NCBI RefSeq assembly: GCF_056712565.1
Contig: NZ_CM160072.1
Length of the DNA stretch: 64,000 bases
Direction: 5' to 3' (one strand)
A program made the translations under genes and the position numbers. The notes beneath the pieces are model-generated. The model was not told the DNA's origin, ran no database searches, and saw nothing but the letters and a program-made list of their open reading frames with translations. This document shows positions 4,474 through 62,066 of this stretch, piece after piece. How positions within the stretch are numbered: position 1 is the first letter of the stretch; each line of letters begins with the position of its first letter.

Positions 4474-4541
4474 TGACGCTTATTCCGAGGCAAGTGAAAC
4501 AGATAATATAAATCGCCCGACATGAAGTCGGGCGAAGAGAA

Positions 4542-7578: not shown

Positions 7579-7614
7579 AATAGCTCCCAGGCTACGCCAG
7601 ATCCGCCATGCTGG

Positions 7615-10170: not shown

Positions 10171-10286
10171 GGTGTTTGATAATGCCCTGGAGCTTGATCC
10201 ATTCGATAAATTAATAGACTGATCGTACCAGACGTTCGCGTAGGCAATTTTATCGTAAGCCCACCAGGTGTTAGTCAGCGGAAGGC

Positions 10287-38235: not shown

Positions 38236-38335
<100 letters not shown>

Positions 38336-42083: not shown

Positions 42084-42099
42084 GTTTAGCTTCCAGAAA

Positions 42100-42615
42100 T
42101 TAAAAATCGAGCAGTTTTTCTTCGAGTTGTTCGGCACTGCTTCGCAGTTTATCGAGAAAACGCAGCTTACGCACGGTATCCGCCGCCGCGTCCCACGTCT
42201 CGTTGTCTAACTGTTCAACCATCAACTGATGGCGGGTATCAAACATCTTTTTCACACGTTTGATAAAGCTTTCCAGCCGCGCTTCATCTTTCGCCTGTTC
42301 GATCTCGTCCAGTTCTTCGCGCAGCTCCAGCTGTTCCATCAGGAACGCGGTGTCGCGCACAGTATGCTGCTCACTGGCGAGATCAAAACCGTGCAAAGAA
42401 AGCAAATATTCCGCGCGCATTAACGGATGACGCAGCGTTTGCCAGGCCTGGTTAATGGTTGCAGATTGCTGTACGGCGGCGAGTTGTTCCGCCTGGCTTC
42501 CGCTGGCGAATTTATCAGGATGATACTGACGTTGTAGATCCTGAAAACGCAGGCTCAGCGCCTGGGTATCGAGTTGATAACGGGCAGGCAAGCCAAAGAG
42601 GGTGAAGTAATCCAT
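42100..42615 (-). CDS. hscB: Co-chaperone HscB (J-domain)
   Basis: 171 aa, [36 protein letters not shown] (J-domain HPD motif). Confidence 0.95.
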
Positions 42616-42710
42616 AACATTCTCAGGGCTGCGATCCGCCGCGATAACGGCGAATCAGGTAAAACAAACCCCACGCGCAGGCGACCACGGTGGGGTTATC
42701 GGTATGCGCA

Positions 42711-43034
42711 TCAAACGTGGAAGCTTTCGCCGCAACCACACTCATCTTTGACGTTCGGGTTGGTGAATTTAAACCCTTCGTTAAGGCCTTCTTTGACGAA
42801 GTCCAGCTGCGTACCGTCCAGAAATTGCAGGCTTTTGCCATCGACCACGACTTTCACGCCTTTGTCTTCAAACACGATGTCTTCCGGCGTCGGTTCGTCA
42901 ACAAATTCCAGTACATAAGCCATACCTGAACACCCGGAGGTTCTCACGCCCAGACGCAGGCCAAACCCTTTACCGCGGTTAGCCAGAAAGGTATTTACTC
43001 GCGCTGCTGCACTGTCGCTCAGTGTAATCGACAT
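42711..43034 (-). CDS. iscA: Fe-S cluster insertion protein IscA (A-type carrier)
   Basis: 107 aa from [30 protein letters not shown]...[13 protein letters not shown] at 43032-43034. Confidence 0.95.
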
Positions 43035-43050
43035 AACCAAACCTCAACTC

Positions 43051-43437
43051 TTATTTTGCTTCACGTTTGCTTTTATAGTCCGCAATGGCGGCTTTGATCG
43101 CGTCTTCTGCCAGAATAGAACAGTGAATTTTCACCGGCGGCAGTTCAAGTTCTTCAGCAATATCGGTGTTTTTGATCGCCTGTGCTTCGTCGAGAGACTT
43201 CCCTTTCACCCATTCGGTGACCAGGGAGCTGGAAGCGATAGCGGAACCGCAGCCGTAAGTTTTAAAACGCGCGTCTTCAATGATACCTTCATCGTTGACT
43301 TTAATCTGCAACTTCATCACGTCGCCACAGGCCGGTGCACCCACCATGCCGCTGCCGACGTTCTCGTCGTTGTTGTCAAAGGAACCCACGTTACGCGGAT
43401 TCTCGTAATGGTCGATAACTTTTTCGCTGTAAGCCAT
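43051..43437 (-). CDS. iscU: Fe-S cluster scaffold IscU
   Basis: 128 aa, MAYSEKVIDHYENPRNVGSFDNNDENVGSGMVGAPACGDVMKLQI... Confidence 0.97.
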   Translation of the reverse strand: MAYSEKVIDHYENPRNVGSFDNNDENVGSGMVGAPACGDVMKLQIKVNDEGIIEDARFKTYGCGSAIASSSLVTEWVKGKSLDEAQAIKNTDIAEELELPPVKIHCSILAEDAIKAAIADYKSKREAK

Positions 43438-43464
43438 TATAAATTCTCCTGATTCCGATACCGA

Positions 43465-44679
43465 TTAATGATGAGCCCATTCGATGCTGTTCAGATCCAC
43501 GCCCTGCTTGTACATTTCCCACAGCGGAGAAAGGTCACGCAGACGACCGATGGATTTACGAACTAACTCGATGGTGTAGTCGATCTCTTCTTCAGTAGTA
43601 AAACGACCTAAAGAGAAACGGATAGAGCTATGTGCCAGCTCGTCGTTCAGCCCCAGCGCGCGCAGCACGTAGGACGGTTCGAGGCTTGCTGACGTACAGG
43701 CGGAACCTGAAGAAACCGCGAGGTCTTTCAGCGCCATAATCAGCGACTCACCTTCAACGTAGTTGAAGCTGACGTTGAGAATGTTCGGCGCACCGTGTTC
43801 CAGGTCACCGTTCAGGTAAACTTCTTCGATATCTTTGATGCCGTTCCACAGACGGTTACGCAGGCCGCGCAGACGTTCCATCTCGGTCGCCATCTCTTCT
43901 TTTGCGATGCGATAGGCTTCGCCCATACCGACGATCTGGTGAACAGGCAGAGTGCCGGAACGCATACCGCGCTCGTGACCGCCGCCATGCATTTGTGCTT
44001 CGATACGTACGCGCGGTTTACGACGCACATACAGCGCACCAATACCTTTCGGGCCATAGATTTTGTGACCGGAGAAAGACATCAGGTCAACTTTCAACTG
44101 GCTCAGGTCGATAGGCAGTTTGCCCACGCTCTGGGTTGCATCAACGTGATAGATAATGCCACGAGCACGGCACATTTCGCCGATAGCCGCGATATCCTGC
44201 ACCACGCCGATTTCGTTATTTACGTGCATGATGGAAACAAGGATGGTGTCGTCACGCATCGCTGCTTCGAGTTCTTTCAGGTCGATAATGCCATTACGCT
44301 GCGGTGCCAGGTAAGTGACTTCAAAACCTTCGCGCTCCAGCTGACGGCAGGTATCCAGTACCGCTTTATGTTCGGTTTTACTGGTGATGATGTGCTTGCC
44401 TTTTTTCTGATAAAAGTTGGCTGCACCTTTGATCGCCAGGTTGTCAGATTCGGTTGCACCAGAGGTAAAGACGATTTCACGCGGATCAGCGCCGACCAGA
44501 TCGGCAATCTGATTACGGGCGATATCTACCGCTTCTTCAGCCTGCCAGCCGAAACGGTGAGAACGGGAGGCCGGGTTACCAAAGGTTCCGTCCATCGTCA
44601 TAAACTGCATCATTTTCTCGGCAACACGCGGGTCCACCGGCGTGGTTGCGGAGTAGTCGAGATAAATCGGTAATTTCAT
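43465..44679 (-). CDS. iscS: Cysteine desulfurase IscS
   Basis: 404 aa from [26 protein letters not shown]...; PLP Lys in [12 protein letters not shown], catalytic SSGSACTS. The track ORF has an 8-codon extension. Confidence 0.97.
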
Positions 44680-44790
44680 TGCTCTATAAACTCCGTACAT
44701 CACTCAATGCAAGGAACCAGGCTACCGGCTGGATGTACGACCGTGTTTACGGAGTGTTTAGCACTCCGGCCTGATTCTGAATTCTTTTTA

Positions 44791-45279
44791 TTAAGCGCGT
44801 AACTTAACGTCGATCGCGTCTTGTGTGCGGGTGCGTGGCGCGTCGTGAGTATGCTGACGACCAGACACATCCAGCACTTCCTGGTTATTAACCAGTTCGC
44901 CTAAAGTAATGTTATTGAGAAAACCGGTAAGACGGTCGCTCAAATCACGCCACAGCGCGTGGGTCAGGCATTTATCGCCGCCCTGGCAGCCGCCTTTACC
45001 CTGACAACGGGTGGCATCTACAGATTCGTCAACGGCGCTAATCACTTCGCCAACGGCGATGCTGCTGGCATCTTTGCCTAACAGATAACCACCGCCTGGT
45101 CCACGTACGCTGGAAACCAGACCATTTTTACGCAGACGGGAAAACAGTTGTTCCAGATAAGAAAGGGAAATTCCCTGACGTTCGGAAATATCAGCCAACG
45201 GTACCGGGCCCGCTTCAGAGTTGAGCGCAACGTCAAGCATTGCGGTCACGGCATAGCGCCCTTTAGATGTCAGTCTCAT
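44791..45279 (-). CDS. iscR: Fe-S cluster regulator IscR (Rrf2 family)
   Basis: 162 aa, [55 protein letters not shown]...; cluster-ligand cysteines present. Confidence 0.95.
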
Positions 45280-45362
45280 GTCTTACTTCACCTCAAACTC
45301 GCCCCTGCCCGGGGTTTTTTATTGTAAAAGTGGGGGTATTGCATAGCAGGGTCAAGTCTGAC

Positions 45363-45412
45363 ATTCCCGAGTAAATTGGTCAACTATTTACTTGACTGAT
45401 TTAGTCGGGTAT
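45363..45412 (-). promoter_or_regulatory. Tandem IscR type-1 operator sites in the iscR promoter
   Basis: Minus strand reads AAATAGTTGACCAATTTACTCGGGAAT and ATACCCGACTAAATCAGTCAAGTA, matching my recollection of the ATASYYGACTRwwwYAGTCRRSTAT IscR motif, located about 85-135 nt upstream of the iscR ATG. Confidence 0.5.
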
Positions 45413-45455
45413 TTAACCTTCAGTGCCATTTTTTATCGTGGCGTTTGTACCTGTT

Positions 45456-45541
45456 GTCGGATGCGGTGTGAACACCTTATCCGACCTGGGATTCCGTGCA
45501 CTTACAGGCCTGATAAGACGCGTTAAGCATCGCATCAGGCA
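45456..45541. repeat. BIME / REP pair between trmJ and the iscR promoter
   Basis: gtcggatgcggtgtgaacaccttatccgac and aggcctgataagacgcgttaagcatcgcatcaggc. Confidence 0.55.
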
Positions 45542-45548
45542 ACCACTG

Positions 45549-46289
45549 TTATTCGGCCTTGTTACCTTTATTCTGCTGCTCAATAGAAGCCAGAATCCCG
45601 CGCAGGATATTCAATTCCTGGCTTTCCGGGCGTGCACGGGTAAACAGACGGCGCAATTTATTCATCACCTGCCCCGGATGGTTTTCACGGATAAAACCGG
45701 TTGCCAGCAGCGTTTGCTCCAGATGACCATAAAAACGCTCCAGATCATCGACCAGCGGATACGGCGTCTCTTCATGCTCGACCTGCTCGCCATTTTCCTG
45801 AGTTGCCAGCCAGGCCATGCGCACTTCATAGGCAATAACCTGAACCGCCATCGCCAGGTTCAGCGAACTGTATTCCGGGTTAGCCGCAATCGCGACATGA
45901 TAATGGCATTTCTGCAACTCTTCATTGGTCAAGCCGACGCGCTCGCGACCAAACACCAGCGCCACCGGGGTATTTGCCGCTTCAGCGACGCTTTTCAGAC
46001 CGCATTCGCGCGGGTCGAGCATCGGCCACGGCAGCGTGCGGGAGCGAGCGCTGGTGCCCACCACCAGACTACAACCGGCTAACGCTTCGTCGAGCGTATC
46101 GACGATGTGAGCATTACCAATCACATCGCTGGCCCCTGCTGCCAGGGCAATCGCCTGGGAGTCTGGTTTCACTAGTGGATTAACCAGCCACAGATTGGTT
46201 AATCCCATTGTTTTCATGGCACGGGCAACAGAACCCATATTGCCGGTGTGTGACGTCTCCACCAGCACAATTCGAATATTTTGCAGCAT
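45549..46289 (-). CDS. trmJ: tRNA (cytidine/uridine-2'-O)-methyltransferase TrmJ (SPOUT family)
   Basis: 246 aa, [30 protein letters not shown]... Confidence 0.9.
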
Positions 46290-46407
46290 TGTCTTTCTTC
46301 ATCTAAAGATTATTCACGCATCTTATCATAAAACGAAGACAGATGCCGATCTCGCTGCTATACTCTGCGCCGTTTTCCCGTTCTTTAACATCCAGTGAGA
46401 GAGACCG

Positions 46408-47211
46408 ATGCATCCGATGCTGAACATCGCCGTGCGCGCAGCGCGCAAGGCGGGTAATTTAATTGCCAAAAACTATGAAACCCCGGACGCTGTAGAAGCG
46501 AGCCAGAAAGGCAGTAACGATTTCGTGACCAACGTAGATAAAGCTGCCGAAGCGGTGATTATCGACACGATTCGTAAATCTTACCCACAGCACACCATCA
46601 TCACCGAAGAAAGCGGTGAACTTGAAGGTACTGATCAGGATGTTCAATGGGTTATCGATCCACTGGATGGCACTACCAACTTTATCAAACGTCTGCCGCA
46701 CTTCGCGGTATCTATCGCCGTTCGTATCAAAGGCCGCACCGAAGTTGCTGTGGTATACGATCCTATGCGTAACGAACTGTTCACCGCCACTCGCGGTCAG
46801 GGCGCACAGCTGAACGGCTACCGTCTGCGCGGCAGCACCGCTCGCGATCTCGACGGTACTATTCTGGCGACCGGCTTCCCGTTCAAAGCAAAACAGTACG
46901 CCACTACCTACATCAACATCGTCGGCAAACTGTTCAACGAATGTGCAGACTTCCGTCGTACCGGTTCTGCGGCGCTGGATCTGGCTTACGTCGCTGCGGG
47001 TCGTGTTGACGGTTTCTTTGAAATCGGTCTGCGCCCGTGGGATTTCGCGGCAGGCGAGCTGCTGGTTCGTGAAGCAGGCGGCATCGTCAGCGACTTCACC
47101 GGTGGTCATAACTATATGCTGACCGGTAACATCGTTGCTGGTAACCCGCGCGTTGTTAAAGCCATGCTGGCGAACATGCGTGACGAGTTAAGCGACGCTC
47201 TGAAGCGTTAA
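46408..47211 (+). CDS. suhB: Inositol monophosphatase SuhB
   Basis: 267 aa, MHPMLNIAVRAARKAGNLIAKNYE...; IMPase motifs DPLDGT, WDFAAG. Confidence 0.95.
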   Translation: MHPMLNIAVRAARKAGNLIAKNYETPDAVEASQKGSNDFVTNVDKAAEAVIIDTIRKSYPQHTIITEESGELEGTDQDVQWVIDPLDGTTNFIKRLPHFAVSIAVRIKGRTEVAVVYDPMRNELFTATRGQGAQLNGYRLRGSTARDLDGTILATGFPFKAKQYATTYINIVGKLFNECADFRRTGSAALDLAYVAAGRVDGFFEIGLRPWDFAAGELLVREAGGIVSDFTGGHNYMLTGNIVAGNPRVVKAMLANMRDELSDALKR

Positions 47212-47218
47212 TGACTCA

Positions 47219-47252
47219 GGCGGGTGATATCACTCACCCGCCCTCGCCTTTC
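47219..47252 (+). terminator. Stem-loop downstream of suhB (putative terminator)
   Basis: ggcgggtga-tatcac-tcacccgcc (9-bp stem) followed by ctcgcctttc. Confidence 0.35.
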
Positions 47253-47355
47253 AGGCGCTATTCCGAAATACTTCCTCACCGCTTTACTTTCTTTCGTCAC
47301 TCTCCCACCATCTTTCCCCGATTAATGGATGATAAAGAAGTCGCAAGGAAAGGTT

Positions 47356-48210
47356 ATGGCGCTGCCAGTGAACAAACGCGTTCTCAAAATTCTGTTTATT
47401 CTCTTTGTTGTTGCCTTCTGCGTTTATTTAGTGCCGCGCGTCGCCATCAACTTCTTCTATTATCCTGACGATAAAATATACGGTCCCGACCCCTGGTCGG
47501 CGGAATCCGTCGAATTTACGGCTAAGGACGGTACTCGTCTGCAAGGCTGGTTTATTCCTTCTTCGACGGGCCCTGCTGACAACGCCATCGCAACCATCAT
47601 TCATGCTCACGGCAATGCCGGAAATATGTCCGCCCACTGGCCGCTGGTCAGTTGGTTACCCGAGCGTAATTTCAACGTTTTTATGTTTGATTATCGCGGG
47701 TTTGGTAAATCAAAAGGCACGCCGTCCCAGGCCGGATTGCTGGACGATACGCAAAGTGCCATCAATGTGGTGCGCCATCGCAGTGATGTAAACCCACAAC
47801 GGCTGGTGCTGTTCGGGCAGAGTATTGGCGGGGCGAATATTCTGGATGTTATTGGTCAGGGTGATCGTGAAGGCATACGTGCGGTGATCCTCGACTCCAC
47901 CTTTGCCTCTTATGCGACCATTGCCAACCAGATGATCCCCGGCAGTGGCTACTTACTTGATGAGAGTTACAGCGGCGAAAATTACATCGCCAGCGTCAGC
48001 CCGATCCCGCTTTTACTCATTCACGGTAAAGCTGATCACGTTATCCCATGGCAGCACAGTGAAAAGTTGTATAGCCTGGCAAAAGAACCAAAACGGTTGA
48101 TCCTAATCCCGGATGGCGAACACATTGATGCTTTTTCCGATCGTCACGGCGATGTTTATCGCGAACAGATGGTGGATTTTATTCTTAGCGCGTTGAATCC
48201 GCAGAACTAA
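47356..48210 (+). CDS. yfhR: Alpha/beta-hydrolase (S9-like peptidase) YfhR
   Basis: ATG at 47356 with AGGAAAGG RBS (MALPVNKRVLKILFILFVVAF..., TM anchor, GQSIGG nucleophile elbow). An in-frame ATG 27 nt upstream (47329) is the alternative start. Confidence 0.8.
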   Translation: MALPVNKRVLKILFILFVVAFCVYLVPRVAINFFYYPDDKIYGPDPWSAESVEFTAKDGTRLQGWFIPSSTGPADNAIATIIHAHGNAGNMSAHWPLVSWLPERNFNVFMFDYRGFGKSKGTPSQAGLLDDTQSAINVVRHRSDVNPQRLVLFGQSIGGANILDVIGQGDREGIRAVILDSTFASYATIANQMIPGSGYLLDESYSGENYIASVSPIPLLLIHGKADHVIPWQHSEKLYSLAKEPKRLILIPDGEHIDAFSDRHGDVYREQMVDFILSALNPQN

Positions 48211-48400
48211 CCCATGATCGCTAGCACGATAATCATTCACAAAACCACCTTAAGACATGCTAATCCACTGGTCAGAACAGTTTAAAATGAGAAAAATTCT
48301 GTGATGCTTGCCAACATTTCTGATGATTAGCATTCCCTTCGCCATTTCCCTGAGCAAACTTTAGCTATTCTTATCAATTATGCTTATGGGAGATCTACAG

Positions 48401-49681
48401 ATGATGCCTACGCTTGCTCCACCATCTGTCCTTTCGGCTCCCCAGCGCCGCTGCCAGATCTTGCTGACGCTCTTTCAGCCGGGGTTGACCGCCACCACGG
48501 CAACTTTCAGCGAGCTTAATGGTGTGGATGATGATATTGCCAGTCTTGATATCAGCGAAACAGGACGGGAGATCCTGCGCTATCATCAACTCACACTGAC
48601 TACTGGTTATGACGGTAGCTACCGGGTTGAAGGTACAGTGCTTAACCAACGTTTGTGTTTATTTCACTGGCTACGACGTGGTTTCCGTCTGTGTCCGTCA
48701 TTTATTACCAGCCATTTCACCCCCGCCCTGAAGAGTGAACTGAAGCGGCGCGGAATTGCGCGTAACTTTTACGACGATACCAATCTACAAGCGTTAGTGA
48801 ATCTCTGCTCCCGACGGCTGCAAAAACGCTTTGAAACGCGCGATATTCATTTCCTGTGTCTGTATCTGCAATATTGTTTGCTGCAACACCACGCTGGAAT
48901 TACGCCTCAGTTTAATCCGCTCCAACGTCGCTGGGCGGAATCCTGCCTTGAATTTCAGGTAGCGCAGGAAATTGGACGCCACTGGCAGCGTCGGGCGCTC
49001 CAGCCTGTACCGCCTGATGAGCCACTGTTTATGGCATTACTTTTTTCCATGTTGCGGGTTCCCGATCCACTGCGGGATGCGCATCAGCGGGACAGGCAAC
49101 TGCGTAAGTCTATCAAACGTCTGGTAAACCACTTTCGTGAGCTGGGAAATGTTCGTTTTTATGATGAACAGGGGTTATGCGATCAGCTTTATACCCACCT
49201 CGCCCAGGCGTTAAATCGCAGTTTGTTTGCCATCGGTATTGATAACACCCTGCCGGAAGAGTTCGCCCGCCTGTATCCACGCCTGGTGCGCACCACCCGC
49301 GCGGCGCTGGCTGGATTTGAAAGTGAATACGGCGTCCATCTTTCTGATGAGGAAAGCGGTCTGGTCGCGGTGATTTTTGGTGCCTGGCTAATGCAGGAAA
49401 ACGACCTGCATGAGAAACAGATTATTCTACTGACCGGGAATGATAGCGAGCGAGAAGCGCAGATTGAGCAGCAGCTACGCGAACTAACGTTACTGCCGCT
49501 CAACATTAAACATATGTCGGTAAAGGTATTTTTGCAGACAGGCGCTCCGCGCGGCGCGGCACTGATTATTGCTCCTTATACCATGCCGTTACCGCTCTTT
49601 TCACCACCGCTGATCTATACGGACCTGACGCTGACAACACATCAACAGGAGCAGATCCGCAAAATGCTCGAATCAGCATGA
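48401..49681 (+). CDS. csiE: Stationary-phase inducible protein CsiE
   Basis: 426 aa from MMPTLAPPSVLSAPQRRCQILLTLF...; ATG at 48401 with GGGAGA RBS. The 3' end overlaps the hcaT 3' end by 9 nt (convergent). Confidence 0.85.
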   Translation: MMPTLAPPSVLSAPQRRCQILLTLFQPGLTATTATFSELNGVDDDIASLDISETGREILRYHQLTLTTGYDGSYRVEGTVLNQRLCLFHWLRRGFRLCPSFITSHFTPALKSELKRRGIARNFYDDTNLQALVNLCSRRLQKRFETRDIHFLCLYLQYCLLQHHAGITPQFNPLQRRWAESCLEFQVAQEIGRHWQRRALQPVPPDEPLFMALLFSMLRVPDPLRDAHQRDRQLRKSIKRLVNHFRELGNVRFYDEQGLCDQLYTHLAQALNRSLFAIGIDNTLPEEFARLYPRLVRTTRAALAGFESEYGVHLSDEESGLVAVIFGAWLMQENDLHEKQIILLTGNDSEREAQIEQQLRELTLLPLNIKHMSVKVFLQTGAPRGAALIIAPYTMPLPLFSPPLIYTDLTLTTHQQEQIRKMLESA

Positions 49682-50812
49682 GGGAACAACTTTCGGGCGC
49701 AAAAACATTGCCGGAAGCGCCACCAGCGCCATCACCCAGAACACGCCGTGGCCGAGATATTGATACAGGAAACCGGCGAAAACGGTCATGATGGCGATAC
49801 TGCCGCCCATCGCGACGGCAGAGTAAACCGCCTGTAAACGGATGACTTCGCTACCCTGGCGAGCAGCAATATAGCGCATGGCAGCCAGGTGGCAGACCGT
49901 GAAGGTACCGCAATGCAGAATTTGCACCACTATCAACCACGGCAACGCCGTAGTTGCTCCCATAATGCCCCAGCGCACTACGCCGCAAATCGCCGAGATC
50001 AACAGCATATCGCGTGCACTACAACGGCGGAAAAGTTTATTACTCAGCGCAAAGATAATGACTTCCGCCACCACGCCCAGCGACCACAAATACCCCACCG
50101 CCGAGGCCGAGTAGCCAGCTGCCTGCCAGTAAATGGCGCTAAAACCGTAATAGGCCGCATGTGCCCCCTGCAATAAACAAACGCAGGCCAGAAAGCGCCA
50201 GTTCTGGCGAACCAACGCCAACCACGCAGACCAGCCGGTGCTCTCCTGCTGGCGGCTTGCCCCTTGTGGCTGAATCGTCGGACGGATGAGAAAGCCGAGC
50301 AGCATGGATGCCACGCCCAACGTCAACAGCGCGAGGATCACCCGATAATCAAACATACTGACCAGTTTGCCCGTCAGCGCCGAGCCAATGACAAACGCCA
50401 CCGAGCCCCACAGTCTCACTTTGCCGTAATCAAGCGGGAACTGCTTTTGCCACGTATTCGCCAGTGCATCGGTCAACGGTACCAGCGGTGAGAAAAAGAG
50501 GTTAAAGCCAATCATCACCAGCATCAGCCACGCTACGTGCGCCCCCGCCCAGAAGGCGACAGCAAAGAGAAGTGTCAGCAGTGCCAGCACGCGCAAGGCG
50601 GAAATCAGGCGGGAAGGATCGCTGACGCGGGGCGCGATGAGCAAACTCCCGAGGAAACGGGCAACCAGACCCGCCCCCAATAACAGGCCGATGGTTTCTG
50701 GCGTTAAACCAATCCCTTTAAGCCAGACGCTCCAGAAAGGTAGAAAAATGCCGTAACTAAAAAAGTATGTGAAATAGCCGAGCGCCAACCAGCGCGTGGA
50801 TTGCAAAACCAT
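49673..50812 (-). CDS. hcaT: MFS transporter HcaT (putative 3-phenylpropionate permease)
   Basis: 379 aa, 12 predicted TM segments, MVLQSTRWLALGYFTYFFSYGIFLPFWSVWLKG... Confidence 0.85.
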   Translation of the reverse strand: MVLQSTRWLALGYFTYFFSYGIFLPFWSVWLKGIGLTPETIGLLLGAGLVARFLGSLLIAPRVSDPSRLISALRVLALLTLLFAVAFWAGAHVAWLMLVMIGFNLFFSPLVPLTDALANTWQKQFPLDYGKVRLWGSVAFVIGSALTGKLVSMFDYRVILALLTLGVASMLLGFLIRPTIQPQGASRQQESTGWSAWLALVRQNWRFLACVCLLQGAHAAYYGFSAIYWQAAGYSASAVGYLWSLGVVAEVIIFALSNKLFRRCSARDMLLISAICGVVRWGIMGATTALPWLIVVQILHCGTFTVCHLAAMRYIAARQGSEVIRLQAVYSAVAMGGSIAIMTVFAGFLYQYLGHGVFWVMALVALPAMFLRPKVVPSC

Positions 50813-51015
50813 GAGTCCCTCCCGTCAGGAGGCGTTAGTCTGAGGTTAATCGAATGTTGGTGCAAGTTGAAAAATAAGAATATTCGAGCCTGCTTCCTGA
50901 CGGTTATCCTGCATATCAGGAAATGACAAAAAAGAGCGGCCCACAACACAACATGTAAAAAAGAACGATGAAACAGGTGAAAATCGCAATTTATTGAACT
51001 GACAAACTCATGTGA

Positions 51016-51048
51016 GACGGATAAGGCGTGCATGTCGCATCCGGCAGG
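51016..51048. repeat. REP element in the hcaT-yphA spacer
   Basis: gacggataaggcgtgcatgtcgcatccggcagg. Confidence 0.5.
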
Positions 51049-51180
51049 AAACAATAAGCACATTGTCAGCCATCTGCGTTATGCCGTTATACCAGAAACG
51101 AATATCTCAACGCCTGGGCGTGGCGAGGTACCAGAGTGTGTATTACGTTTAAATCACATCATCTTGCAAAGGGATTGGTT

Positions 51181-51603
51181 ATGAACTCACTACGTTATTT
51201 TGATTTTGGCACTGCCCGCCCCGTTTTATTATTAATTGCCCGTATCGCCGTGGTCTTAATTTTCATTATTTTTGGTTTTCCCAAAATGATGGGCTTTGGC
51301 GGTACGGTCCAATATATGGCCTCGCTGGGCGCACCAATGCCGATGCTGGCAGCGATTATTGCGGTAGTTATGGAAGTGCCCGCCGCGATATTAATCGTGC
51401 TTGGCTTTTTCACCCGTCCGCTGGCGGTGCTGTTTATTTTCTACACGCTGGGTACGGCGGTGATTGGCCACCATTACTGGGATATGACCGGCGATGCGGT
51501 TGGGCCAAATATGATTAATTTCTGGAAGAATGTCAGTATCGCTGGCGCATTCCTGCTGTTGGCAATTACCGGGCCGGGGGCGATTTCTCTCGATCGGCGT
51601 TAG
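51181..51603 (+). CDS. yphA: DoxX-family inner membrane protein YphA
   Basis: 140 aa from [28 protein letters not shown]...; ATG at 51181 with AGGGATTGG RBS. The track ORF has a 15-codon extension. Confidence 0.85.
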
Positions 51604-51607
51604 GAAA

Positions 51608-51755
<148 letters not shown>

Positions 51756-51762
51756 TTATAAA

Positions 51763-52635
51763 TTACAGCAACGCAACCCGCAACGACATCTCTGAAATTG
51801 TTGATTCCCCTGGTGCAAGCGCAATGAGGTCACCACCTTCCGGACGATGATGGTCATCCGGCGCATGGCTCATCGGTTCCAGACAGAAGAAATCAAACGC
51901 ATATCCTTTATCAAACGCCGGGTCGGAAACAAAGATGAAATAACACGGTGCAGGCGGCGTCGTTTCCATGATGATGGCATAACCCTCCTGCGGCTGCTCG
52001 ATGCGGGCCTGACCATTCCATCCGGCAAAACCATTGTTTACCCACTGGCGCGGTAACGGCGCGAGCTGGTTAAAATCCAGTTCCTGCGGTAGCTGCTCGC
52101 AAAACTCACCCGCCAGCCACTGCTCCTGCTCCCGCCAGTAACAGCTCGCCTGCGCCTGAATCCGCGTTTGTGGTGACAACGGAAAATAAGGATGCCAGCC
52201 GGTACCAAATGGCAGCGTCTCTGCCCCTTTATTGGTGACAGAGAGCGTCACCGTCAGCGTATCTGCCGTTAAATGAAACGCCTGACTTACCCGATAGTGA
52301 TAAACACCGCTGCGATGTTCATACACCAGACACAAGCTATCTTCGCTGCGCGAGACACATTGCCACTGCCCCAGCCAGGCATCACCGTGTAGATAGTGCG
52401 CATCCCACTCAACATTCGGTTGTAGTTGATATTCACGTCCCTGCCAGACAAAACGATTACCGCTCACCCGGTTTGCAAACGGCACCAGCGGAAAACAAGA
52501 GGCATCGGTTGCCACACCGCTTTTTTTACCAGGACGTAGCAGCGGCGTCGTATCGCGCCAGAAGCCTTCGATTACGCCGCCCTGATCAGAAACGTCCAGC
52601 TTTAGCGGCCCGTGAGATAAGGTATAGATGGTCAT
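51763..52635 (-). CDS. yphB: Aldose 1-epimerase family protein YphB
   Basis: 290 aa, MTIYTLSHGPLKLDVSDQGGVIEGFWRD... Confidence 0.85.
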   Translation of the reverse strand: MTIYTLSHGPLKLDVSDQGGVIEGFWRDTTPLLRPGKKSGVATDASCFPLVPFANRVSGNRFVWQGREYQLQPNVEWDAHYLHGDAWLGQWQCVSRSEDSLCLVYEHRSGVYHYRVSQAFHLTADTLTVTLSVTNKGAETLPFGTGWHPYFPLSPQTRIQAQASCYWREQEQWLAGEFCEQLPQELDFNQLAPLPRQWVNNGFAGWNGQARIEQPQEGYAIIMETTPPAPCYFIFVSDPAFDKGYAFDFFCLEPMSHAPDDHHRPEGGDLIALAPGESTISEMSLRVALL

Positions 52636-52646
52636 CCGCAGACTCC

Positions 52647-53708
52647 TTAATCCGGGAAATTAATCACAACTTTCCCGCATTTGCCGCTTGCCATCAGTGC
52701 ATAAGCATCTCCCGCCTGTTCCAGCGAGAAGCGGTGGGTAATGGCATTACGCGGCCACAGTTTCCAGTCCGTTAAATCGTGGGCGCATTTTTCCATATGG
52801 AACAGACTGGTCACCCAGGAGCCGATAATCCGCCGTTGATGGTGCATCAGGTCAGCGCTAACCTCGAACTCGACTTTTCCGGTTTCACCAATGTAAACCA
52901 CGCGTCCCCAGTCAGCGGTGGATTGCAGTGCCAGTAAGCGACCTGCGGCATTACCGGAACAATCAAGCGCAACATCCGCGCCGCCGTGAGTGAGTTCGGC
53001 GATTATCTGCGGCAGACCTTCGGTGGTCGCTAAATAGCCGTGATCCATCACTCCTAACTGTTTCGCCATCGCCAGACGTTCCGGCAACATATCAACGCCG
53101 ATGATCCTTTTTGCACCGCGACCTTTCGCCAGCATCATCGCCATCATGCCGACCGGCCCCAGACCGACCACCAGTACGTTATCACTGCCGGAAACTTCGC
53201 CGCGCAAAATCCCTTCATACGCTGTACCAACGCCGCAACTGATAAACGCACCATCTTCGTAACTCAGTGCATCCGGCAGGAGGATCAGATCTTTTTCTTC
53301 CGCCAGCAGGTATTCAGCATGGCCGCCGTCACGCTGCCAGCCGTAAGCGGCTTTTCCTTCACCGGTGCAGGAGATAGGAAAACCGCGACGGCAGTTCGGG
53401 CAAAAGCCACAACCGGAAATGTGATACACCAGCACGCGGTCGCCCTCTTTAAAATGGCGACAGCCTTGCCCCATCGCCACAATCTGCCCGCACGGTTCAT
53501 GACCGTTGATAAATCCCTGGTATAACGGTTTATCGGGTGCCGCCGCCGTAGCGCGGTGCTGGTGGTAGATATAGTGGACATCGCTTCCGCAAATCCCGGA
53601 GGATTTCATTTTGATCAGTACCTGGTTAATCCCCGGCGTCGGCACCGCAACTTCCCGCAGATCGACGGTCGAATTTCCTGGTAAATAAGCTGCCAGCATC
53701 GTTTTCAT
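52647..53708 (-). CDS. yphC: Zinc-dependent alcohol/polyol dehydrogenase YphC (MDR family)
   Basis: 353 aa from MKTMLAAYLPGNSTVDLREVAV...; GICGSDVH zinc-binding signature. The track ORF has an 11-codon extension. Confidence 0.85.
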   Translation of the reverse strand: MKTMLAAYLPGNSTVDLREVAVPTPGINQVLIKMKSSGICGSDVHYIYHQHRATAAAPDKPLYQGFINGHEPCGQIVAMGQGCRHFKEGDRVLVYHISGCGFCPNCRRGFPISCTGEGKAAYGWQRDGGHAEYLLAEEKDLILLPDALSYEDGAFISCGVGTAYEGILRGEVSGSDNVLVVGLGPVGMMAMMLAKGRGAKRIIGVDMLPERLAMAKQLGVMDHGYLATTEGLPQIIAELTHGGADVALDCSGNAAGRLLALQSTADWGRVVYIGETGKVEFEVSADLMHHQRRIIGSWVTSLFHMEKCAHDLTDWKLWPRNAITHRFSLEQAGDAYALMASGKCGKVVINFPD

Positions 53709-53773
53709 AAATCCCTCATTAACAATACGATTAATTTTCATCCCTGCCGCACCTGCGCCAGGGGCGTTAAGGT

Positions 53774-54772
53774 TTAGCGTTTCGCTTTACTGCTACGCTG
53801 GGTCAGCAAGATATTCGCCAGCACCGCCACCACGATGATGACGCCGCGCACCACCTGCTGGAAAAAGGAGTTAATCCCGAGCAGCACCAGACCGTTACCG
53901 ATTAGCGTAATCACCAGTACGCCAAGCAGCGTACCGAACAACGAGCCGCGACCGCCGGAAAGCGCCGTACCGCCGACAACGACCGCGGCGATGACGTCAA
54001 ACTCCAGACCGTTTGCGGCACCTGCGTTACCGGAACCGAGGCGCGCCGCCAACAAAATGCCGGTCACCGCCGCTAATAATCCCGAAAGGGTAAAAATAAG
54101 AATGCGTACCCGACGAACGTTAATACCGCACAACTGCGCTGCAGTGGCATTACCGCCAACAGCAAAAACCGAGCGCCCGAAGGCGGTTTTGCGGCTAATG
54201 AACACAAACAGCGCAAATAACACCATCATGATCAGCGCGGATACCGGCACCCCGAGAAATTGTCCGCCCAGCCAGTCCAGCACTTCGTTTTCGTTAATTG
54301 GCACTGGCAAGGCGTTCGTCATAAACAGCCCCATTCCGCGCAGGGCGCTCCATAAACCCAGCGTGGCAACAAAACTTGGCACGTTAAACACGCCGCGCAG
54401 CACCCCGGCGAGCGTTCCCATCAGCGCACCTAACAGCAACACCAGCAGACAAGCAATCGCCAGCGGAACGTCAAATTGCAGCAAAAACGCCAGGCACACT
54501 GAAACAAAAGCCACCATCGGCCCAACGCTGACATCAATTTCACCGGAGATAATAATCAGCGTCATCGCCCAGGCGGCGATCCCAATGGTGGCGGCATCGC
54601 GCAGCACGTTCATCTGGTTATTCAATGAGATAAAGCCAGGCGCATTCAGGGAGAAGACCAGATAAAGAATGGCAATCACCACCAGCAAACCGATCTCATT
54701 AATATGGCGACTGACAAATTGTTTGAGCGAGACGCTCTTGCCCTGCGGCAATGGTAATGACGAAGCAGACAT
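53774..54772 (-). CDS. yphD: ABC transporter permease YphD (RbsC-like sugar permease)
   Basis: 332 aa, multi-TM, branched-chain/sugar-type permease sequence. Confidence 0.85.
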   Translation of the reverse strand: MSASSLPLPQGKSVSLKQFVSRHINEIGLLVVIAILYLVFSLNAPGFISLNNQMNVLRDAATIGIAAWAMTLIIISGEIDVSVGPMVAFVSVCLAFLLQFDVPLAIACLLVLLLGALMGTLAGVLRGVFNVPSFVATLGLWSALRGMGLFMTNALPVPINENEVLDWLGGQFLGVPVSALIMMVLFALFVFISRKTAFGRSVFAVGGNATAAQLCGINVRRVRILIFTLSGLLAAVTGILLAARLGSGNAGAANGLEFDVIAAVVVGGTALSGGRGSLFGTLLGVLVITLIGNGLVLLGINSFFQQVVRGVIIVVAVLANILLTQRSSKAKR

Positions 54773-54796
54773 CTTCAGGTTCCTCGGTAAAATTCA

Positions 54797-56308
54797 TCAG
54801 TGCACAGACAGAATGGCGGACATCAGCTCATCCACATTGACCGGAGAGTGAAACTCCTGCGAGAACGTACCGTGCTGTAACAACAGAATGCGGTCGCACA
54901 CCAACGGTAACTCCTCCACTTCACTGGAGATAAACACCACGCTTTTTCCTTCGGCAGCCAGCTCGCGGACAATACGGTAAATCTGCTGTTTGGCTTCGAT
55001 ATCGACGCCGCGCGTTGGCTCGTCGAGCAACAAAATCTGGCTGGCGGCATAGACCCAACGACCGATCACCACTTTTTGCTGATTGCCGCCAGAAAGCGTG
55101 CCGATGGGCGTTTCGCTACTGGCGGCCTTGACCGTCATCCGCTGCATCACCTCTTCGGTCAGGCGGCGGATGGTGGACCATTGCAGCACACCGTTGGCGC
55201 TGATTTTTTGCCGATTGGTCAGCACTGTATTTTCGTCAACGCCCAACCAGGGAATGATCCCCGCTTCTTTGCGGTTTTCTGGCGTATAGCCAATGCCGCG
55301 TTTCAGCATGTCGCCGTAATCGGGGCGCGTGATTTTCTCGCCGTTGATAACAATTTCGCCCTGTTCATACGTCTCCAGCCCAACAATCGCCTTCAGCAAT
55401 TCACTGCGCCCTGCCCCCAGCAGACCAGCAATGCCGAGCACTTCGCCACAACGTAGCGTAAAACTGATATCCTCCAGCTTGGGCTTATGGCGTAACGCAC
55501 GGACTTCCAGCACGGCTTGATCCATAATTTCCTGAGGGGCAACCGGCGCAATATCAACGTGATCGCGCCCGAGCATTAGCGACACAATATGATGCGTAGA
55601 GGTGTTTTCGAGCATCACATCGCCCGCCACCTGACCATCGCGCATAACGGTGGCACAGGAGGCAATGCGGCGAATTTCTTCCATCCGGTGGCTGACATAA
55701 ATCACCGCCACGCCCAGTGCCGACATCTTTTTCACCGCGCTGATCACCAGTTCAACTTCCGCACTGGCAAGCGAGCTGGTGGGTTCATCAAGAATGACCA
55801 CGCGCGGCTCGCCCTTCATCACCCGCGCAATTTCCACCAGTTGCTTTTGCGCCGGGCTTAGTGTTGAAACAAGTTGTTCAGGACTAACGTCAACGCCCAA
55901 CGCCTGCAAGCAACGTTGGGCGTCCTGCGCCATTTGCAGGTAATCAATCATGCCGTTGCGGCGGGGCCACTGACCGAGGCAGAGGTTTTCCGCCACTGTC
56001 AGCCCTTCCACCAGACTTAACTCCTGATAAACCGCACGAACCCCCAGTTCAGCGGCACGGCGAGTCAGCGTAGCTTCGTCACCTTCCAGTCGCGTCTCGC
56101 CAATCCAGATATCACCGCTATCCGGACGTTCGCTACCGGTCAGCATTCGAATGAGGGTCGATTTTCCCGCACCGTTTTTGCCTAACAGCGCGCGAACTTC
56201 GCCTTTATTGAGCGTGAAGTTAACGTTATCCAGCGCAACGACGCCGGGGTAACGCTTATTTCCTGCCACCACTTTTGCTACCGGGACTGCCTCTGTTGCC
56301 GTGAACAT
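54797..56308 (-). CDS. yphE: ABC transporter ATP-binding protein YphE (duplicated ATPase, RbsA-like)
   Basis: 503 aa; two Walker A sites (GKNGAGKST and a second in the C-terminal half) and the LSGGNQQKV signature. Confidence 0.9.
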   Translation of the reverse strand: MFTATEAVPVAKVVAGNKRYPGVVALDNVNFTLNKGEVRALLGKNGAGKSTLIRMLTGSERPDSGDIWIGETRLEGDEATLTRRAAELGVRAVYQELSLVEGLTVAENLCLGQWPRRNGMIDYLQMAQDAQRCLQALGVDVSPEQLVSTLSPAQKQLVEIARVMKGEPRVVILDEPTSSLASAEVELVISAVKKMSALGVAVIYVSHRMEEIRRIASCATVMRDGQVAGDVMLENTSTHHIVSLMLGRDHVDIAPVAPQEIMDQAVLEVRALRHKPKLEDISFTLRCGEVLGIAGLLGAGRSELLKAIVGLETYEQGEIVINGEKITRPDYGDMLKRGIGYTPENRKEAGIIPWLGVDENTVLTNRQKISANGVLQWSTIRRLTEEVMQRMTVKAASSETPIGTLSGGNQQKVVIGRWVYAASQILLLDEPTRGVDIEAKQQIYRIVRELAAEGKSVVFISSEVEELPLVCDRILLLQHGTFSQEFHSPVNVDELMSAILSVH

Positions 56309-56330
56309 AGGGACCTCTGCGAATCAGCGA

Positions 56331-57314
56331 TTAGGGCAGACCATCAACGTGCGTTGCCAGCCACTGTTTACCGTCTTCCGTTTTGGTATAGAGATCGATT
56401 GGCACCTGAATCACTTTTTCACCGTCGGCTTGTTTATTGATAACCTTCAATGTTTGCGCGAAAACAGCATTGCCCATTTTCTTACCGGAAATATCCACCA
56501 CCGCTTTCAGCACCTGGTTGTTTTCCAGCTCCTGAGCAATTTCAGTGGTCATATCAGAACCGAAAACAGCAATTTTTCCGGCCTGATTTTGATTACGTAC
56601 CGCTTTTACCGCGCCGAGTGTCGCTCCGCCCGATTCCCCCATAATGGCGTTGAGATCCGGCGTGGAGATAATCAGTTTTTCACCGACAGAAATCGCTTTA
56701 TCTAAAACAGTCCCTTCCTGATTAGCGACAATTTGCGCGCCGGGAACGCGGGTTTTTAATACTTCTTCAAACCCTTTACGACGTTGCACACAAACTTCAA
56801 AGGCTTCGCAATTGATGACGGCAATTTTCGGCTGGTCAATTTTGTTGGCAATAAAATAATCGGCGGCTGCGTTACCCAGTTTTTTACCAAATTCCAGCGG
56901 GTCACCAACCAGATATGCCGAGACATATTTATCGACACCCTTTTGATTAATACAGGTGTTGTAGCAAATCACCGGAATACCCGCTTCACTGGCGCGACGA
57001 ACGGTACGGCTACTGCCATTTTCAGACACTGCCGATAAAATAATGGCATCGACATTACGCTCCACGAGGGTATCAACAAAGGTACTTTCTTTCGAAATAT
57101 CGCCCTGAGCGTTAGTTTCAATTAATTGTACCTGTACTGAAGAATCTTTTGCCGCATCCTGAACGCCCTGACGCACTCCGGCGTAATATCCCTGGGTATC
57201 AAGGTATATTGCGCCAATAGTCATTTCTTTATCAGAAGCCCTGGCAAATAGTGCGCTACCCAATAGCGTAGCCATTAATAATAAATTACGGGTTCTTGTC
57301 ATTTTTTTAGGCAT
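56331..57314 (-). CDS. yphF: Periplasmic sugar-binding protein YphF
   Basis: 327 aa; signal peptide MPKKMTRTRNLLLMATLLGSALFARA; type-I periplasmic binding fold. Confidence 0.85.
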   Translation of the reverse strand: MPKKMTRTRNLLLMATLLGSALFARASDKEMTIGAIYLDTQGYYAGVRQGVQDAAKDSSVQVQLIETNAQGDISKESTFVDTLVERNVDAIILSAVSENGSSRTVRRASEAGIPVICYNTCINQKGVDKYVSAYLVGDPLEFGKKLGNAAADYFIANKIDQPKIAVINCEAFEVCVQRRKGFEEVLKTRVPGAQIVANQEGTVLDKAISVGEKLIISTPDLNAIMGESGGATLGAVKAVRNQNQAGKIAVFGSDMTTEIAQELENNQVLKAVVDISGKKMGNAVFAQTLKVINKQADGEKVIQVPIDLYTKTEDGKQWLATHVDGLP

Positions 57315-57410
57315 AGTGCCTCCTGTAGGGTTTTTATTTACAACGGCTTATTTTAATTATTTGAGCGTGAGCGGCAGCGCGTGCCGCTCAAATATTACAG
57401 TTAATAGGGT

Positions 57411-60400
57411 TTAGTGAACGTAGCTAAAAATAAAAGGCATCACGGTGGTGAATAATGCCGCTTTCGGCCAGGCTGGATTAATCGCCATCAATTCAGCGCG
57501 AGCAGATTCATAGTGCGCAACCTCCCCTAATCCCGCGGCCGCCAGCATCGCCACCATCAGGCATTTTTCTTTATGCTGCTGTTGTAAATCGCTATACAGC
57601 GACAACAAGTCAGGCTGCGAGACGGCAAAGAAATCCGCTTCGATACTGGTTTTCGCCATCTCTTTCGCCCACTGTTTCATTTCACTAAACAGTTGCTGTG
57701 CGGTGTGTTGTTCGCCCAGCAGTCGCAGCGCCATTCCTTGCCAGAAGAGATAATCAACCGGCTGATCGTTGTAATAACTGTGGATGTTAATGGTGCGATC
57801 GCCGGTCGCCGCCAGACGTAAACAACGCATCGCTTCAGTTTCATCGCCCTGCGCGTTGGCGCATACTGCCTGCCAGAACCAGATGTCGTTGTCAGTTTGC
57901 CCCGGTAAACGGCCTTCGCTTAAATTCTCCGGATAATGCAGCGCGGCATGAAGCAGTTCGCTGGCCTGCTGCGGCTCTCTGGCATCAAGATGCTGCCAGG
58001 CGCGTAATAACTGGTTGAGGATAAACTGGCTGGTGACCTTCCCTTCCCCACCTTCCCACGGGTGGAATTTGCGCGTGGCGAGAATGTCCGCCGCTTTGTC
58101 TGCCTGACCAGTGAGATGCCACAAATTGAGCAGTTCTGCGGTCATGTCGTCGCGTTTCAGCGCAATTTCCAGATTATTTTCCAGACGCGCCAGTCGTTTC
58201 TCCGGTGTGACACCGCTTAACTTATCCAGCAAATCCCGTTCGAAAAGCAGACGTGCATCCTGCGGCGCAAGCTGATAAGCATTATCAAGATAACGCGCGG
58301 CCAGCTCATAATCGTGCTGCTTATTCCACGCATGGATCGCCAACCCGCGCCAGCCGTCGGCAAACTCCGGCGACATCTCTACGCAACGCTGCCATAAGGC
58401 AATGGCTTTACCGTAGCTACGCTTGTTGTAGTAGAAGCAGGCCAGTAAATGCCGGGCAAACCAGCACTCTTCGATACTCTCCAGCGCCGCCACTTCTTCC
58501 AGCGTATTCGGGAAACGGACAAACTGCGGGAAGGCATCAATAGCTTTTACGACCAGTTCTCCGCGTTCAGCTTTTGGTAGCAAACTGGCTTGCAGGTAAA
58601 GCGGTAGCGTGCGCTGACAGTCCAGTGCGTTCAGCATATCTGCCGCCAGGGCGGGCATGCCCCAGTTAATCAGTTGCCCGGCGGTCATCAGGGCGTTAAC
58701 GTCGCGTCCCTGACAAAGACCTCGCCACTGTACGAGGGCAGATTCGCTACGACCATCGAACCAGTTCAGCCACCACAGAGTAGCGTTCAGCGGATAATCA
58801 CGCAGCAGTTTCTCGCGCTGCAAACGCGCGTTGTCCTGACGACCACTTAACACCAGTAGCAGGTTATGCAGGCAAAGCACTTCCTGATTGGTTGGGCAGG
58901 CGCGAAGACTTTGTTGGCAAAAATCCAGACCAGCGTCAAAGTTACCATTACGCGCCGCCAGCCGTGCCAGACCATAATAGCCGCCTGCTTTACTGTTGCC
59001 GCTCCAGACCGCACGCCAGAAATCCTCTTCGGCTTGTTGATATTGCCCCTGACGTTCGTAAGCACTGGCGCGAATCAAACTCGCCTGTCCGCACTGCGGA
59101 TTTTTGTTCAGCGCATGTGCGCGTTTCAGCGCCTGAGTGGCATACGCCACCGCTTGCGGGAAATCGGCACGGTTATATTCCAGCATCGCCAGCGCCAGGT
59201 TACAGCGATAATCCAGCGGATCCAGCGCCACGCCGCGCAGGTAGTAATCGAACGGTGAACGGCTCGCGTGATGATATTGCTCCAGATGTTGACCGATAAA
59301 CCAGGCTTCATCTGTACTGGTAATGTCTTGTGCTGCCAGTGGCGCTTTGGCGACGTCCGGCAACGGCAACGCTTGCGACTGATGTTCATGATAACTCAGT
59401 ACAATATTGCCGTCGGCATCGGAGAGCTCAATGGTCAGCCTTTCAGGATTGATACCGTGCAACACGCCCTGGATGGCGGTCGCTGGTGTCAGGGCCACGG
59501 CATCATCGAGCAACGCGTTGCATTTGCCGATTTCGCGGATCGCCAGGCGGTATCCGTTCAACGGAGAGATGGCATACAGCCCCCACTCAATCCCCCGCTC
59601 ACTACGCTGGAGTTTTATCACCGCATCGCGGGAGGCATTTTGCACCATGCCCAGAGAATGATAAGGCAGGAAATACTGCTCGAAACGCTTCTCCTCGTAA
59701 GCATCAAGCCAGGTAAAATCAGGCTGGTTATCGGCAAAAATACCGGTCATCAGTTCGATATACGGGCCGTTATTGTCAGTCAGGCTCTTATCCCACGCCT
59801 GGCCAAATTCACTGTGTCCCCAGCTCCACTGTTTTTTACCTGGCGCAATATGGTGGTTGGCAACGTGTAGCAAACCACCATCTTCATCGTGACACCACGC
59901 GCCAACAAAATCGTACTGTGATTTTTCAGCCATATATGAGGTTGGAACGGGCACATTTTTATAGCGAGAAATGTCCACTCCGGCGGAGTAGTCCACTTTG
60001 TAGTAAGTGCCGGTGGCGATGGGGAAAGCGGAGACGGCCCGTTTACCGTGATCAAACACCGCAGTCACATCCGGTGGGAAAACGCTCTGATGCCCTTCAC
60101 CCCCTTTCACTGCCGGGTTGGCCCACCACAAGAAATGACGCGGCGTGGCGTTGCCGTTATAGACGCGACTGGCGATTTCCAGCGCCGCCCGGTCAGGGCG
60201 CAGGGTGAAACCTGTCATCACCTGTAAACCGTGCATCGGCTCCGTTTCGCCGACCCACACCGTCTGTGCGCCGTCGTCATGGGCTTCGAGGGTGAAATCA
60301 ACGGGCATAAAGGTGGTCGGGCGATGGTGTTGCGGCCAGTTAAACTCAATCCCGCCGGAGATCCACGGCCCCAGCAGTCCCACCAGCGCCGGTTTAATGA

Positions 60401-60692: not shown

Positions 60693-60809
60693 GGTGCCCT
60701 CAATATTAACAAGACATACTGAATTAAAAGATTTGTGGCAGTGTATTGAACAATCTGGCAATGTTTTCGCGGAATAATCACGCAATTAACTAAACAAGGT
60801 TTAGTAAAG

Positions 60810-62003: not shown

Positions 62004-62016
62004 TGGCGCGATAACG

Positions 62017-62047
62017 TAGAAAGGCTTCCCGAAGGAAGCCTTTTTTC
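62017..62047. terminator. Bidirectional intrinsic terminator between yphH and glyA
   Basis: gtagaaa-ggcttcc-cgaa-ggaagcc-tttttt: perfect 7-bp GC-rich stem flanked by an A-run and a T-run. Confidence 0.6.
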
Positions 62048-62066
62048 AACAGATTAACCGTTTCGC

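Follow-up and report, generated by a model that had tools for sequence, protein, structure and literature searches.

In the E. coli chromosome studied here, the transporter gene hcaT lies next to yphA and the hcaR-hcaEFCBD cluster which separates these two genes in K-12 is absent. The spacer between hcaT and yphA is most probably a scar left by the loss of about 5.2 kb in an old deletion, in the form of an allele shared with E. albertii, and hcaT would have been maintained independently of the genes which were lost. Because the absence of hca throughout phylogroup B2 was published in 2009, the absence as such is already known. What is added here is the identification of a relic of hcaR at the junction, the breakpoints, the sharing of the allele with E. 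albertii and the evidence for the maintenance of hcaT. Unless another locus is named, positions are those of the window, the entire stretch of 64,000 nt which was analysed (assembly GCF_056712565.1, contig NZ_CM160072.1).

Gene order at the hcaT-yphA locus

The genes and the subdivisions of the spacer are listed in Table 1. csiE and hcaT are convergent and their 3′ ends overlap by 9 bp. The order in K-12 MG1655 is hcaT-hcaR-hcaE-hcaF-hcaC-hcaB-hcaD-yphA, in agreement with the original prediction, which placed hcaR-hcaEFCBD between hcaT and yphA. In the window, the spacer between these two genes extends from 50813 to 51180 and measures 368 bp (and not 367 bp as first given). A tblastn search of all 64 kb of the window with the six K-12 proteins (E <= 1e-3) gave no homologues of HcaR, HcaE, HcaF, HcaC, HcaB or HcaD, and the entire gene set of the cluster, composed of a LysR-type activator, the alpha and beta subunits of a Rieske dioxygenase, a ferredoxin, a dihydrodiol dehydrogenase and a ferredoxin reductase, is therefore absent from it. 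The predicted absence of hcaR-hcaEFCBD from this site is thus borne out by the open reading frames, by BLAST and by tblastn of the window.

A comparison over 2.1 kb shows 100% identity of the window to E. coli ATCC 11775 / DSM 30083, and the RefSeq annotation of ATCC 11775 gives the order csiE-hcaT-yphA-yphB with no gene between. When compared to K-12 by BLAST, homology stops at 50897 and restarts at 51099. Between these endpoints there are 5,331 bp in K-12 versus 201 bp in the window and, judged against K-12 alone, the pattern resembles a replacement rather than a deletion since the 201 bp have no K-12 counterpart.

Table 1. Genes, spacer segments and REP of the csiE-hcaT-yphA region (window positions)
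Feature	Position	Strand	Basis or remark
csiE	48401..49681	+	tblastn with K-12 CsiE, 98.8% identity; ATCC 11775 annotation
hcaT	49673..50812	-	Intact 379-aa ORF; MFS transporter
hcaT 5′ UTR and putative core promoter	50813..50897	-	Nearly invariant in seven Escherichia sequences
Distal part of the old hcaT-hcaR spacer	50898..50977		Aligns with the L006 hcaT-hcaR spacer and the E. albertii spacer
REP-bearing segment, about 100 bp	50978..51078		Absent in K-12 and L006; present in E. albertii at 80%
REP (palindromic unit)	51018..51045	-	Degenerate REP consensus, 0 mismatches
hcaR 3′-end relic, TTATGCCGTTA	51079..51089	-	Exact 11-nt match to L001 10373-10383
Junction and remnant of the hcaD stop-codon region, TACCAGAAA	51090..51098	+	hca-positive alleles: ..CTG TAA CCAGGATAATTAG
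yphA upstream region, common to all alleles	51099..51180	+	96% identity to the K-12 sequence after hcaD; about 95% to E. albertii
yphA	51181..51603	+	140-aa DoxX-family membrane protein; tblastn, 97.9% identity to K-12 YphA; RefSeq annotation

Anatomy of the spacer

The impression of a replacement changes when the spacer is compared not only to the K-12 locus (L001) but also to an hca-positive Escherichia locus from outside E. coli proper (L006). The first 165 bp or so, up to about 50977, are homologous to the L006 hcaT-hcaR spacer, and the BLAST alignment ends as early as 50897 because it is K-12 which has diverged locally beyond this point. In the K-12 hcaT-hcaR spacer, about 45 nt (L001 10299-10345) are unlike the version common to L006, B2 and E. 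albertii; that of K-12 is also found in Escherichia sp. MOD1-EC7003.

At the other end of the spacer, the 11-nt relic reads, in reverse complement, (G)TA ACG GCA TAA, or ..V-T-A-stop. The matching K-12 stretch is the last 11 nt of hcaR, stop codon included, and the end of L006 hcaR is identical. The relic is followed at once by TACCAG, while hca-positive alleles read ..CTG TAA CCAGG at the end of hcaD. The last nucleotides of hcaR are thus retained and abut the remains of the hcaD stop-codon region, which supports the view of the original prediction that the spacer is a deletion scar. When the cluster is deleted in silico from K-12 and L006, the resulting sequences can be aligned across TATGCCGTTATA to the window as well as to E. 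albertii. The window has also lost 11 nt, CTAGGATAATT, at the junction compared to E. albertii, K-12 and L006. By our estimate, a 10-11-mer would occur by chance at both of the predicted boundaries with a probability of about 1e-4 to 1e-5. HcaR C-termini were compared to test whether the codons of the relic are native to hcaR; they differ between genera, and the relic is only 11-12 nt long.

Alignment of the spacer with the two K-12 junctions, as had been proposed together with the original prediction, places the deletion endpoints so that L001 10384-15613 (5,230 bp) would have been removed. Except for the 11 terminal nt, hcaR would be gone, as would hcaEFCBD in its entirety as far as the stop codon of hcaD. 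The scar would retain the old hcaT-hcaR spacer with the promoter of hcaT itself, followed by the REP-bearing segment of about 100 bp, which would either be an insertion later than the deletion or have disappeared from the hca-positive alleles, and would end with the hcaR relic and an unchanged yphA upstream region. hcaT would survive as an independent and selectively maintained transcription unit.

Age of the allele

The REP-bearing segment and the relic of the B2 spacer are orthologous to those of the E. albertii hcaT-yphA spacer. Identity to E. albertii is 95% next to hcaT (50813-50897), 81% over 50898-50977, 80% over the REP segment (50978-51074) and again 95% over the relic and the region upstream of yphA (51075-51180). 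The E. albertii spacer is 414 bp long and devoid of hca in 24 of the 24 contigs read which encode E. albertii HcaT. Its REP segment includes about 36 additional nt which, by eye, resemble a second REP. Since the same allele occurs in E. albertii at species-level divergence, the deletion would appear to be ancient rather than a recent event in B2. Recent introgression from E. albertii into B2 was considered and rejected because the B2 flanks stand at the same distance from E. albertii as those of K-12 (for hcaT, 87.5% identity in B2 and 87.4% in K-12; for yphA, 93.8% in both). From these alignments, the allele would be either about as old as the split between E. coli and E. albertii or would have crossed between lineages long ago.

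Among the Escherichia loci compared, a set without E. fergusonii, E. marmotae and E. ruysiae, the hca cluster is absent from E. albertii, E. whittamii, strain E69 and B2 and present in L006 and in non-B2 E. coli. As this distribution departs from the species tree, an old polymorphism or recombination between lineages is required whichever of the two states came first.

The opposite polarity, in which the spacer is the original state and hcaR-hcaEFCBD was inserted in an ancestor of the non-B2 E. coli and of some other Escherichia, was our first reading and we now regard it as unlikely. It takes account of the observation that hcaT lies beside yphA in E. albertii, E. whittamii, E69, many Enterobacter, Lelliottia and Leclercia and some Kluyvera, of the presence of hca genes within 10 kb of hcaT in only 12 of 80 species (if read naively), and of the orthology with E. 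albertii of a spacer segment which had seemed specific to B2. It was demoted by the continuity of the spacer with that of L006 and by the relic, since gain through recombination in the flanks does not predict that the last 11 nt of hcaR should be found at an hca-negative junction. Moreover, the hcaT-hcaR-hcaEFCBD-yphA arrangement is also found in Kluyvera and Pseudocitrobacter, where hca is as diverged as its flanks. Synonymous divergence from K-12 is 1.0 to >2 for the hca genes and 1.3-2.6 for the flanking hcaT and yphA, with all inter-genus comparisons saturated. This similarity speaks for ancestral presence and holds no indication of recent transfer; no sampled genus carries hca genes markedly closer to K-12 than the flanks, as might be expected of a recent donor.

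Frequency in E. coli and absence from phylogroup B2

The junction, counted at a query coverage of at least 80%, was found in 1,045 of the 5,426 complete genomes of E. coli searched (about 19%), with an identity of about 98.8-100% among the matches listed. Its occurrence in so many genomes shows that it is no assembly artefact. With the 5.3-kb K-12 hcaR-hcaD segment as query, hca DNA of any extent is found in 4,379 of these genomes and covers at least 80% of the segment in 4,347. Counted separately, genomes with the junction (1,045) and genomes with hca DNA (4,379) give a sum of 5,424 against a total of 5,426, as would be expected if the two alleles exclude each other.

DSM 30083 is assigned to phylogroup B2 (PMC4334874). 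In their treatment of gene content, Touchon et al. (2009; PMC2617782) report that hca is missing from all B2 strains, and the same depletion is described by Ward et al. (2016; PMC4819403) and, in the sections dealing with these genes, by Fang et al. (2018; PMC5996543) and in a pangenome study of ST131 (2022; PMC9205054). The locus and the presence/absence polymorphism in the Touchon, Fang and ST131 reports are those of the window, without difference in substance; where they deal with the cluster, these papers give gene content without an account of the junction. The absence itself, as originally predicted, therefore stands, but not as a trait of one strain. Judging from the match to the type strain together with the literature, all or nearly all strains of phylogroup B2 would carry the hca-negative allele. 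This phylogroup is that of the extraintestinal pathogenic (ExPEC), adherent-invasive (AIEC) and ST131 strains.

A recent deletion confined to B2 or to the strain, for example by recombination between REP sequences, is very improbable. Although the spacer does include a REP and recent losses of hca do exist (as in strain G5, with an IS1 at the junction), E. albertii carries the same junction, REP segment and relic at only about 80% identity in the unconstrained parts, the junction is widespread in the complete genomes at the identities given above, and the K-12 cluster lacks flanking REPs at the places where REP-REP recombination would need them. That the hca genes have moved elsewhere in the genome or to a plasmid, with retention of the pathway, is more improbable still: nothing in its support was found in the window, which is 64 kb of chromosome, hca DNA is located at one place in nearly all positive genomes (median of 1 copy per genome, maximum 2) and on a plasmid in 0 of 5,426, the separate counts for junction and hca DNA sum to 5,424 of the genomes, and the B2 genomes are reported to lack hca altogether in the gene-content data of Touchon et al. 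(PMC2617782).

Additional losses of hca in Escherichia

As the structure of the junctions shows, the hca genes have been lost independently at least two further times in Escherichia. In E. coli strain G5 (L084, NZ_CM127462.1), an IS1A is located at the deletion junction (3916-4940), and the deletion extends from hcaR through the 5′ part, or most, of yphA, leaving a yphA pseudogene. This loss is recent and independent of that in B2. In Escherichia sp. MOD1-EC7003, about 16 kb have been lost from hcaR to yphH, including nearly the whole yph operon, so that at this locus (L004 9500-10000) hcaT and a K-12-like spacer stretch are followed by part of the intergenic region between yphG and yphH, then by the end of yphH and by glyA.

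These two alleles, together with that of E. whittamii and E69, resemble the B2 allele in that hcaR-hcaD is gone while hcaT and its promoter are spared, and on the left all of these deletions end close together, no more than about 60 nt from the stop codon of hcaR. The right endpoints of G5, inside yphA with the IS1 at the junction, and of MOD1-EC7003, inside yphH, are unlike that of B2. In the E. whittamii/E69 allele, in contrast, the endpoints lie about 10 nt or less from those of B2 but the REP segment is missing. It may result from the same event as the B2 allele or from an independent one.

REP sequences in the spacer and its surroundings

The presence of a REP in the spacer, which had been predicted, is confirmed. 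The consensus pattern used, with conserved GCCGGATGCG..CGCCTTATCCG, has 4 matches in the window and 0 in 100 shuffles, the three additional copies being located at 38306, 45456 and 51611. The spacer REP is 86% complementary to that at 51610-51638 and finds matches in K-12 among the REPs between yphA and yphB and between iscR and trmJ. Its likeness to the REP/BIME sequences of E. coli lies in the consensus match, in its extragenic position between hcaT and yphA and in the further copies in the window. It differs in that it occurs singly and is somewhat degenerate, notably in the central stem (GCGACATGCACGC). The stem is weak, the minimum free energy of the fold being -10.4 kcal/mol with a z-score of -0.09 compared to shuffled sequences. 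An Rfam scan of the spacer gave a single match, with naRNA4, a family derived from REPs, which at 19 bits did not reach the threshold of 59.5. The REP is a passenger in the scar, with no sign of having caused the deletion.

In contrast to the hcaT-yphA spacer, the neighbouring yphA-yphB spacer (51604-51762; 159 bp compared to about 47 bp in K-12) is a composite of several REP units. The first of these lies at 51611-51638, another, of a different type, at about 51661-51698, and an incomplete unit at about 51744-51757. An IS1397 copy, an element which targets REPs, is inserted in the B2 strain 09A19CPO009. It was considered as a marker of the hcaT-yphA REP and rejected in this role, since it sits in the yphA-yphB spacer.

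Conservation of hcaT and its promoter

HcaT of the window is 99.7% identical to K-12 HcaT and scores above the cut-offs of two NCBIfam models (TIGR00902, 707.6 bits with a cut-off of 698.9; NF008346, 624.5 bits with a cut-off of 259). The csiE-hcaT pair occurs in essentially all of 80 Enterobacteriaceae species or loci, with HcaT proteins 81-98% identical to that of the window, and no stop codons were found inside hcaT in the 80 species. The gene is under strong purifying selection in hca-negative genomes, with a dN/dS of 0.02-0.09 between two such genomes. Among the hca-negative B2 window, E. albertii, E69 and E. whittamii, the dN/dS of the window gene against the others is 0.02-0.03, and it is 0.05-0.10 among Salmonella, Enterobacter, Klebsiella and the window, which are likewise all hca-negative; pairs in which both genomes carry hca give 0.05-0.08.

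A motif, CTTGC..N..CAGACT..GGGAGG-ATG, lies in the 70 nt preceding hcaT and is conserved in most of the 80 species, both with and without hca. Kotaka et al. (2023; PMC10249474 and its supplement) observed that evolved strains repeatedly acquired the mutation hcaT -30C>T, in the -10 region, with raised expression. This position maps to the first C of CAGACT (50842). Together with the conservation between species, it places the probable -10 hexamer at CAGACT (reverse complement of 50837-50842) and the probable -35 hexamer at TTGCAC (reverse complement of 50860-50865), with a spacing of 17 nt, both in the part spared by the deletion. A scan of the spacer for consensus promoters and terminators gave no match, the hcaT hexamers being below the threshold of the scan.

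Two further features of this region may be mentioned. An inverted repeat, CCTCC-N5-GGAGG, lies over the hcaT Shine-Dalgarno sequence (50813-50842, minus strand) in most of the 80 species and might occlude the ribosome-binding site. In addition, at 50843 (hcaT -31, coding strand) there is a T in B2, E. albertii, E69 and E. whittamii, in which hcaT is beside yphA, and a C in K-12, L006 and MOD1-EC7003, an association which involves seven non-independent sequences and may reflect linkage only. We considered this C/T difference as an up-promoter variant and set it aside: it adjoins the site of the -30C>T mutation but is one base outside the -10 hexamer and probably has little effect.

The gene is known to have its own promoter and to be dispensable for growth on 3-phenylpropionate (PMC10249474). 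In K-12, pigment formation is lower when both mhp and hcaT are lacking, while a strain without hcaT still grows on 3-phenylpropionate, and the part played by HcaT in 3-phenylpropionate uptake is only partial (PMC10249474). The original prediction left open whether hcaT is a relic or serves another substrate. The first possibility is rejected by the conservation in 80 species, the conserved promoter and the purifying selection. As for the second, the sequence comparisons support a role independent of the hca enzymes, and the maintenance of hcaT as an independent and selected transcription unit suggests that its main role does not depend on them. Its annotation as a 3-phenylpropionate transporter rests mainly on a neighbourhood found in a minority of the species which retain hcaT.

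Neighbouring regions

On the left side of the hca site (40800-50900), B2 and K-12 are about 98.1-98.6% identical, compared to about 96.0% over the yph operon (51100-62050, yphA to yphH), where identity falls to 93% in some 500-bp windows before returning to 98-100% at glyA. For yphC and yphD, identity between B2 and K-12 is 95%, about the same as to other Escherichia species (93-95%). The yph block may reflect old recombination, although genome-wide identity between phylogroups B2 and A is itself close to 96%. Farther away, between der and xseA (about 7590-19000, minus strand), the ATCC 11775 annotation includes three genes, for an intimin-like inverse autotransporter, SinH, a SinI-family protein and an adhesion-domain protein whose gene is about 8 kb long.

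Metabolic and evolutionary implications

Considering the pathway, the strain would be unable to dioxygenate 3-phenylpropionate or cinnamate. In the absence of HcaEFCD and HcaB, no 2,3-dihydroxy compounds would be produced from these two substrates to feed mhp. According to the part of Touchon et al. which concerns these operons, mouse-virulent B2 strains are also without the mhp operon, unlike the avirulent commensal B2 strain ED1a (PMC2617782).

A broader and more tentative proposal, which we hold to be possible but less probable than not, is that the presence or absence of hca is a very old polymorphism which crosses species boundaries in Escherichia. Linked to this is the idea that HcaT is one of the core transporters of Enterobacteriaceae, paired with csiE, a stationary-phase gene, and with a conserved promoter of its own, rather than a dedicated 3-phenylpropionate permease. 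One deletion allele would then be common to E. albertii and E. coli B2, and possibly to E. whittamii and E69 as well, while an equally old hca-positive allele could persist in the non-B2 E. coli and the L006 lineage. If true, this would imply long-term balancing or niche-dependent selection, or an ancient exchange of alleles.

The loss of hca is one metabolic trait which sets B2 apart from other E. coli, and the same cluster has been the target of several independent deletions in Escherichia. An ancient deletion common to E. albertii would weaken the case for tying this loss to the virulence of B2 strains.
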